The translations under genes were made by a program, and so were the position numbers. From assembly GCF_003334385.1 (NCBI RefSeq), contig NZ_QOWN01000171.1: 524 nucleotides of DNA; one strand, given 5' to 3'. The notes beneath the pieces were generated by a model, which did no database searches, had not been told where the DNA came from, and saw nothing but the letters and a program-made list of their open reading frames with translations. Shown here one piece after another: positions 1 through 524 of the stretch. Source of the stretch: Escherichia coli (lineage in GTDB: Bacteria; Pseudomonadota; Gammaproteobacteria; Enterobacterales; Enterobacteriaceae). Position 1 is the first letter of the stretch; each line of letters opens with the position of its first letter.

Positions 1-1
1 T

Positions 2-25
2 CCGCGATCACTGCGGGATTTTTTT
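2..25 (+). terminator. Putative intrinsic-terminator-like element: short GC hairpin followed by a T7 tract, oriented for plus-strand (antisense/convergent) transcription. Truncated by the window edge, so highly tentative.
   Basis: Plus strand 2..16 is ccgcg-atcac-tgcgg: pairs 2-16, 3-15, 4-14, 5-13 are Watson-Crick and 6-12 is a G-U wobble, with a 5-nt loop. It is followed by 'ga' and then ttttttt (19..25). The stem is short and may extend past the window. On the minus strand the same region reads A-run then hairpin, which is not terminator polarity for the gpI-like transcript. Confidence 0.25.
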
Positions 26-32
26 ATTCTTT

Positions 33-524
33 TTACCCCTGCCGCCCGATAACCACGACCTTTCCGCCCCCGCCTTCATCACGGGTACTGATGTCCTGGG
101 ATATACGGCGGGAGCCAACCAGCATTTCCCCGTAAGGCACCGGCATCGGGTTACCCTGGGCAATCATGTTGTCCAGTGACGAAAAATACGTGTTCTGTCT
201 GCCGTTATCCGTTGCGCGGTAATCCGGTGTTTTTGCCTTCGGGGCCAGCATCTGGGCCACACCACCCAGAATCATGCTGGCTCCAAGTGAAAACAGCATC
301 GTGGTGGCAGAAAAACCACCGGCTGCCAGGGCTGAACCCCATAACGCCATCGAGGCACCGGCAGTGAGGAAAGAGCCCACGATGGCTGCCGCCCCCAGCA
401 CAATCTGCAGTCCACCCTTTCCGGCCCCGGCCAGTCGCGGCACAATGTGGATGACCGTTCCCTCACCCAGCTGTTCGTGAAGACGGGCGTACACCGCCTC
501 CGGTGCCGTGTCATCACCGGCAAT
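33..524 (-). CDS. Tail tip assembly protein I, phage lambda gpI family; partial, with the N-terminal part beyond the window edge at 524. TAA stop at 33..35.
   Basis: The 153-aa ORF on the minus strand (33..494) reads ...GTVIHIVPRLAGAGKGGLQIVLGAAAIVGSFLTAGA...LFSLGASMILGGVAQMLAPKAKTP...DNGRQNTYFSSLDNMIAQGN...YGEMLVGSR...DEGGGGKVVVIGRQG. This is collinear with, and closely similar to, the C-terminal roughly two-thirds of lambda tail assembly protein I as I recall it (...GAVIHIVPRVAGAKSGG.FQIVLGAAAIAGSF...LFSLGASMVLGGVAQMLAPKARTP...DNGKQNTYFSSLDNMVAQGN...YGEMRVGSR...VVVIGR). I translated codons 495..524 by hand: the frame stays open (...IAGDDTAPEA-V-YARLHEQL), and the 'M' at 492..494 is a GTG (plus-strand cac), so the true start is upstream of the window. 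The stop at 33..35 (plus tta = TAA on minus) was checked by hand. Confidence 0.9.
   Translation of the reverse strand: MAGDDTAPEAVYARLHEQLGEGTVIHIVPRLAGAGKGGLQIVLGAAAIVGSFLTAGASMALWGSALAAGGFSATTMLFSLGASMILGGVAQMLAPKAKTPDYRATDNGRQNTYFSSLDNMIAQGNPMPVPYGEMLVGSRRISQDISTRDEGGGGKVVVIGRQG

Follow-up and report, generated by a model that had tools for sequence, protein, structure and literature searches.

[quoted passage not shown] For the F-pyocin of Pseudomonas aeruginosa, where PA0640 is the homologous plug protein and PA0639 the gpK homolog, a preprint describes an N-terminal region of PA0640 that is removed in mature particles and present in the precursors of assembly-stalled mutants; the particle shows the C-terminal part of the protein only. 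On the cleavage itself our literature search found just these two sources, and neither a full paper on cutting of gpI by gpK nor a published site. Given the 2006 prediction, the 2025 report and the F-pyocin preprint, removal of the ubiquitin-like leader of protein I by protein K is already known. An earlier note on the DNA studied here credited the idea accurately to the 2006 study and called the cleavage a prediction, a description now overtaken by the conference report for lambda and the preprint for its homolog.

Structures of the lambda tail tip resolve only part of gpI. By cryo-EM, gpI in the virion is a trimeric plug with residues 134/135-223 resolved, its C-terminal domain sitting in the tail-tip lumen beneath the C-terminus of the tape measure, and in purified closed tails gpI was reported as resolved 'from position 101 onward'. 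gpK was not found in lambda virions (lambda cryo-EM study). Mass spectrometry of lambda virions in a PLoS Biology supplement lists a single gpI peptide with 9.87% coverage, which by our own count equals the 22-residue C-terminal tryptic peptide.

The window analysed here is a 524-nt stretch of Escherichia coli DNA whose minus strand carries the 3' part of gene I, encoding residues 64-226 of a lambdoid prophage tail-tip protein I (tail tip assembly or plug protein, a lambda gpI homolog; 33..524, assigned from the open reading frame, its translation and homology). Gene I is the sole long open reading frame; its stop codon occupies 33-35, it runs off the window at 524 and its 5' end lies outside. 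Residues are numbered on a 226-residue protein whose residues 1-63 were borrowed from the closest matching prophage locus, L001. Short plus-strand open reading frames in the window overlap the strongly conserved minus-strand gene and were treated as spurious. The window DNA is 99% identical to genes annotated 'tail assembly protein' in E. coli prophages, is present in 1,910/5,426 complete E. coli genomes, and reaches 96-97% identity with Stx-converting and other lambdoid phages. It is an ordinary prophage copy of the lambda tail-tip gene I, one among thousands of near-identical copies in E. coli.

Protein I is 66% identical to lambda gpI over its full length (BLASTP, E = 1e-103), so that the 'diverged homolog' of the earlier note is not very diverged. 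It matches the gpI chain of a lambda structure (8iyk_I, E = 6e-94) and shares the domain order of the lambda gpI/gpK system (PDB 8IYK, 8IYL, 8XCG, 9E7M). The Pfam family PF06805 (Lambda_tail_I) spans residues 15-97 (E = 9e-16) and the PHROG profiles phrog_4244 (E = 3e-86) and phrog_32 (E = 8e-79) also match; NCBIfam has no model for the protein. The profile matches and the full-length homology place it in the lambda I family (PF06805; PHROG 32 / 4244).

Locus L001, 99% identical to the window, has a lambda-type tail module in the order tape measure (H)-M-L-K-I-J-lom, in which I lies between K and J, as in the L-K-I-J order of lambda; the window itself carries only gene I. Among diverse viral loci with sufficient upstream DNA, a K homolog lies directly upstream of I in all 34+9. 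The spacer between I and J is about 60 nt in lambda and 345 nt in L001, and no convincing open reading frame was seen in the latter. A terminator-like hairpin with a T-run, located by a consensus scan at 1..27 on the plus strand, opposite to gene I and just beyond its stop codon, falls within this spacer (L001 5689-6032); the scan returned 1 site in the window against 0.6 expected in shuffles. RefSeq starts L001 gene I (6033-6713, minus strand) at a GTG that yields 193 residues. With a lambda-like ATG 33 codons upstream the protein has 226 residues and regains the first strand of its ubiquitin-like fold. Many database entries for protein I, with lengths of 207-212 residues, may have the same truncated start.

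AlphaFold2 models the N-terminal part of protein I as a beta-grasp domain with strands at 14-19, 29-33, 60-64 and 87-92 and a helix at 37-47 (pLDDT 87-96). When this model was compared with the PDB using Foldseek, the top matches were all MoaD, SAMP1, CysO, ThiS, Urm1, NEDD8 or ubiquitin, with probability 1.0 and target TM scores of 0.64-0.75, at E-values of only ~1e-3. The predicted domain thus falls among the ThiS/MoaD/ubiquitin-like beta-grasp folds, in agreement with the earlier proposal of a lambda-type protein I with a ubiquitin-like domain. Its C-terminal part in the window (residues 64-92; 438..524, minus strand; Pfam, AlphaFold2 and Foldseek) closes with the last strand VIHIVP, which ends at P92 (codon 438-440). 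In the model of I alone, residues 93-100 form a coil linker made up of the segment R93-L94-A95-G96-A97 (423..437, minus strand; G96 at 426-428, A97 at 423-425) and the start of a variable Gly/Lys stretch, G98-K99-G100-G101 (411..422, minus strand). Two Gly/Ala-rich hydrophobic helices are predicted to follow (246..413, minus strand): H1 at residues 101-129 (327-413) and H2 at 135-156 (246-311). According to the lambda cryo-EM papers, H1 and H2 are predicted to be transmembrane and move out of the tip when it opens, and they are proposed to insert into the outer membrane. The remaining C-terminal plug and beta-strand domain (residues 157-226; 36..245, minus strand) aligns to lambda gpI residues 134/135-223 as resolved in PDB 9e7m and 8iyk.

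The earlier note had drawn attention to a Gly-Gly pair encoded at 411..416, between PRLAGAGKGG and LQIVLGAAA, and read it as a ubiquitin-style di-glycine placed exactly where the ubiquitin-like domain meets the hydrophobic core. The reverse complement of 408-440, CCG CGA CTG GCC GGG GCC GGA AAG GGT GGA CTG, encodes PRLAGAGKGGL and bears out the position, with G100 at 414-416 and G101 at 411-413 and LQIVLGAAA next. The placement at the junction holds on one side only: H1 is modelled to start at G101, but the ubiquitin-like fold ends at P92, the Pfam match ends at A97 and residues 93-100 are coil. Nor is the pair statistically notable given the composition: glycine makes up 16% of the translated window, 6 overlapping GG occur where shuffles give 4, and 22% of shuffles place a GG within the 12 residues around the junction.

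To assess conservation, a homolog search over 1.84 billion representatives yielded 3,273 relatives of protein I, from which 74 full-length representatives, each from a separate 50%-identity cluster, were aligned. An additional alignment-based search gave mainly close relatives from enterobacteria, with little gain in diversity, and a scan for related loci with one protein representative (P0101) gave no matches. P92 and G107 are invariant in the 74 homologs. G96 is glycine in 97% of them, and position 97 is A in 74%, S in 15%, G in 5% and R in 5%. The flagged residues are less uniform: G101 is glycine in 89%, and G100 is glycine in just 39% and a gap in 27%. The first glycine lies at exactly +4 from P92 in 67/74 homologs, while the distance from P92 to G107 varies from 14 to 18 residues, and insertions and deletions therefore fall between position 97 and the helix, where the flagged Gly-Gly is located. 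In lambda gpI, P92, G96, A97, G100 and G101 occupy identical residue numbers; its linker reads AGAKSGGVF, compared with AGAGKGG-L here, with a one-residue deletion in the prophage protein just after the Gly-Gly. Invariance of the pair across homologs had been put forward as a check on the ubiquitin-style reading; Gly-Gly is not conserved as a unit, and its distance to P92 varies.

The register of the linker against known ubiquitin-like proteins points to the same upstream position. When a profile of the ubiquitin-like domain was aligned by hhalign with single sequences, G96 lay opposite the penultimate glycine of MoaD (G80 of 81 residues), CysO (G92 of 93) and ubiquitin (G75 of 76), so that G96-A97 falls opposite the C-terminal Gly-Gly in the same register in all three; the hhalign probabilities are low (MoaD 12%, CysO 51%, ubiquitin 2%). 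The MoaD and CysO sequences used were confirmed against PDB chains 1fm0_D and 3dwg_C, both of which were also matches in the fold search. Motif comparison gives IVPRLAGA for protein I, ILPAVAGG for CysO, FPPVTGG for MoaD and LVLRLRGG for ubiquitin. The Gly-Gly of the three known proteins lies 4-5 residues past the P92 equivalent, and the flagged Gly-Gly 8-9 residues past the last strand. At the place directly after that strand where a strict Gly-Gly would be expected (4-5 residues past the equivalent of ubiquitin L71 or the MoaD Pro), protein I has Gly-Ala, and across homologs the aligned pair is G followed by A, S, G or R, with only the first glycine conserved. The di-glycine of ubiquitin, MoaD and CysO therefore most likely has its counterpart in G96-A97 and not in G100-G101; the flagged pair is probably four to five residues off the ubiquitin-equivalent cut site, which would lie upstream. 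With G96-A97 as that counterpart, we place the scissile bond, by position and with some preference, within G96-A97-G98, and R93-A97 is most likely the segment that the JAB protease of K recognises and cleaves.

The likeness to MoaD, ThiS, CysO and SAMP, which are associated with JAMM proteases (for example Mec+ with CysO), comprises the beta-grasp fold, the JAB family association (Iyer 2006) and the C-terminal motif, P-x-hydrophobic-x-G-small here and PAVAGG or PPVTGG in CysO and MoaD. It has clear bounds. The motif in protein I ends in Gly-Ala and not Gly-Gly, and is internal, with a structural domain after it. The L001 tail module holds no E1-like or sulfur-transfer genes. Sequence similarity is too weak for HMM detection against the PDB, where the profile of the ubiquitin-like domain matched only gpI-type chains and neither MoaD nor ThiS. 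A further PDB chain, 25vf_9, matches protein I (E = 1e-13) and is likely PA0640, judging by its length and molecule name; its linker reads IGSKQSGLFQ, with the conserved G-S and no Gly-Gly.

Cleavage directly after G100-G101 (...AGKGG / LQIVLG), giving a mature start at L102, was the site favoured in the earlier note. JAMM proteases canonically have Gly-Gly at P2-P1, and glycine at G101 is common among homologs, as given above; 59% of homologs have a GG at some point from position 98 to the helix, and nearly all enterobacterial relatives have xGG at the flagged position. G96, in turn, is not absolute. In a T1-like Webervirus (PIPRARKNGG) and in one further representative (VVTAAQKGG) G96 is missing, the Gly-Gly is kept and K has the JAB motif, so both lineages without G96 retain the downstream pair; the arginine found at position 97 in 5% of homologs would also be an odd P1 for a ubiquitin-type JAMM protease. 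These exceptions and the frequency of G101 leave some probability to alternatives to the G96 site. Against the downstream cut stand the low frequency of glycine at G100, the variable distance of the Gly-Gly from the last strand, and several homologs without any glycine at 100-101 (GAGKYTQ, GAGNAAR, VDGQ-FIVAP, KLAG-IEIG) that are still paired with a JAB-intact K. In addition, lambda gpI modelled 'from position 101 onward' in mature tails would make G101 part of the mature protein. Loss of one or the other glycine did not go along with loss of a JAB partner; every K examined retains the motif. On balance we regard a cut after G101 as unlikely.

Since the window contains no K gene, its partner was taken from the 99%-identical loci. 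There the adjacent K carries Prok-JAB (E = 9e-15 in L001) and NLPC_P60 domains with an intact JAMM motif, the upstream Glu within AESCG and then HSHPGGLPWLSEAD, the same motif as in lambda K; the pattern used was Glu ... His-x-His-x7-Ser-x2-Asp. The earlier note had assumed a neighbouring K with an intact JAB/MPN domain, and the closest locus supplies one. Across 23 diverse paired loci E19, H68, H70 and D81 of the JAB domain are invariant and S78 is at least 90% conserved; C121, H187 and H199 of the NlpC/P60 domain are likewise invariant. Some lineages have an x9 JAB spacing in place of x7. In Webervirus, protein I of Klebsiella phage NJS3 (L130, 753-2079) and of a second locus (L129) has Ala-Arg in place of Gly-Ala, and the JAB spacing of K is longer (HSHTGDGATTVPSATD; His-x-His-x9-Ser-x2-Asp).

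We modelled the complex by folding K, a (G4S)6 linker and residues 1-135 of I as one chain (AlphaFold, with 23 paired K-I sequences) and assessed it by pLDDT and secondary structure. The fused model has a pTM of 0.65. L94-A97, coil in I alone, forms a short strand in it, and pLDDT drops below 50 from G100 onward. Whether the Gly-Gly tail sits in the JAB active site was the question that the earlier note had posed for such a model; the model is compatible with docking of a ubiquitin-like tail to K and with an ordered part that ends before the Gly-Gly, and loss of order already at G100 argues against a cut after G101. Taken together, the conservation, the register, the JAB-intact homologs that lack Gly-Gly, the model and the reported resolution of lambda gpI from residue 101 make a cut at G96-A97-G98 likelier than one after G101.

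We therefore considered the following scheme, for which cleavage in this prophage is taken by analogy from the lambda conference report and the proteomics of the F-pyocin homolog. Protein I would be made as a precursor consisting of the beta-grasp domain (~14-92), a tail or linker (93-100), the hydrophobic helices (101-156) and the C-terminal plug domain, and the gene just upstream would provide K, in which a zinc metalloprotease of the JAB/MPN type is joined to an NlpC/P60 peptidase. While the tail tip assembles, the JAB domain would bind the beta-grasp domain in the manner of a deubiquitinase on ubiquitin and cut it off. The structural part, from about residues 98-101, would stay as the trimeric plug holding the C-terminus of the tape measure and would later insert into the host membrane, with G100-G101, where the structural domain starts, as a flexible hinge or a helix cap and not as the cut site. 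That the JAB domain of K removes the ubiquitin-like leader of I we consider very probable, and the whole account, with a precursor, removal by K and a cut within G96-A97-G98, is probably the best explanation of the data.

Two separately conserved glycines (G96 and G101), the invariance of both K active sites and the reported first residue of the lambda structure (101) would also fit two cuts, in which JAB cleaves at G96-A97, the papain-like NlpC/P60 domain trims at G101 and a short Gly/Lys peptide is released. If true, Gly-Ala would be a non-canonical P1 for a JAMM enzyme and a phage NlpC/P60 domain would gain a role in protein processing rather than at the cell wall. Residues 98-100 could, however, simply lack order in the cryo-EM maps, and the usual substrates of NlpC/P60 domains are peptidoglycan peptides. 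The K homolog of one locus (L124) is JAB-only, with 114 residues and without NlpC/P60, and the latter is therefore dispensable in some lineages. We consider this double processing very unlikely.

An absent domain and a disordered one are indistinguishable by cryo-EM, and the window is silent on whether its prophage is functional. The Gly-rich stretch could serve as a hinge only, with the ubiquitin-like domain staying on the protein, or the prophage could be defective, so that protein I of this copy is not cleaved at all. Removal is described, however, both in the conference report and by the F-pyocin proteomics, the family as a whole conserves G96, and the reading frames and catalytic motifs of I and K are intact in ~70 near-identical loci, which leaves an uncleaved protein I the least probable outcome.

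Processing by K would resemble that of eukaryotic ubiquitin precursors (polyubiquitin and ubiquitin-ribosomal protein fusions), in which a ubiquitin-fold domain is fused ahead of another protein and removed by dedicated proteases, the deubiquitinases, that recognise the fold and a small-residue tail. In the phage the fold lineage is a different one, a neighbouring gene supplies the protease, a prokaryotic JAB, and tail-tip assembly reportedly gates the cleavage. Phage T5 shuts the tail-tip lumen at the same place with the trimeric plug domain of pb3, whose hydrophobic segments are likewise proposed to enter the outer membrane; the T5 plug, in contrast, is inserted into the hub protein and has neither a ubiquitin-like leader nor a K-type protease. 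In the scheme a bacterial virus would control its assembly by a checkpoint that consists of a ubiquitin-fold leader and a protease of the deubiquitinase type, and the phage I/K pair would be a clear example of the prokaryotic antecedents of ubiquitin processing. Our addition is a narrow one: the comparative and modelling evidence suggests that the cut should be sought at G96-A97 and not at the Gly-Gly, and this assignment affects the design of mass-spectrometry searches and point mutants.

Several loci depart from the common arrangement of I and K. Diverged viral contigs (L119-L124) carry in-frame fusions of gene I with J, the central fibre gene, as open reading frames of >2.5 kb. Zinc-ribbon and KilA-N genes precede I in Vibrio phage P2 (L132, 1-2103), with no K homolog within 1.5 kb, and in the HK022-type phage mEp235 (L131, 1215-1477) a small open reading frame and an annotated terminator lie between K and I. 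In some database proteins (P0216, P0248, P0254, P0004, P0009; phrog_28576) I is combined either with L (PF05100 + PF06805, 394 residues) or with the NlpC/P60 portion of K (351-382 residues). They may be genuine fusions, of the kind that Iyer et al. noted, or may result from frameshifts or errors in gene calling.

The lambda reference sequence NC_001416 (L125, 1113-1361 and 1259-1873; record ~14130-14875) annotates K with 199 residues, without the first ~47 residues of the JAB domain, the catalytic Glu included. A different frame directly upstream encodes the missing residues, and relative to the prophage the reference has a 1-nt gap (GAGGC-TATTTCC). In independently sequenced lambdas and close relatives a 301-nt query is spanned by 302 nt, and the frameshift in NC_001416 is therefore probably an old sequencing error, the real gpK having ~247 residues.
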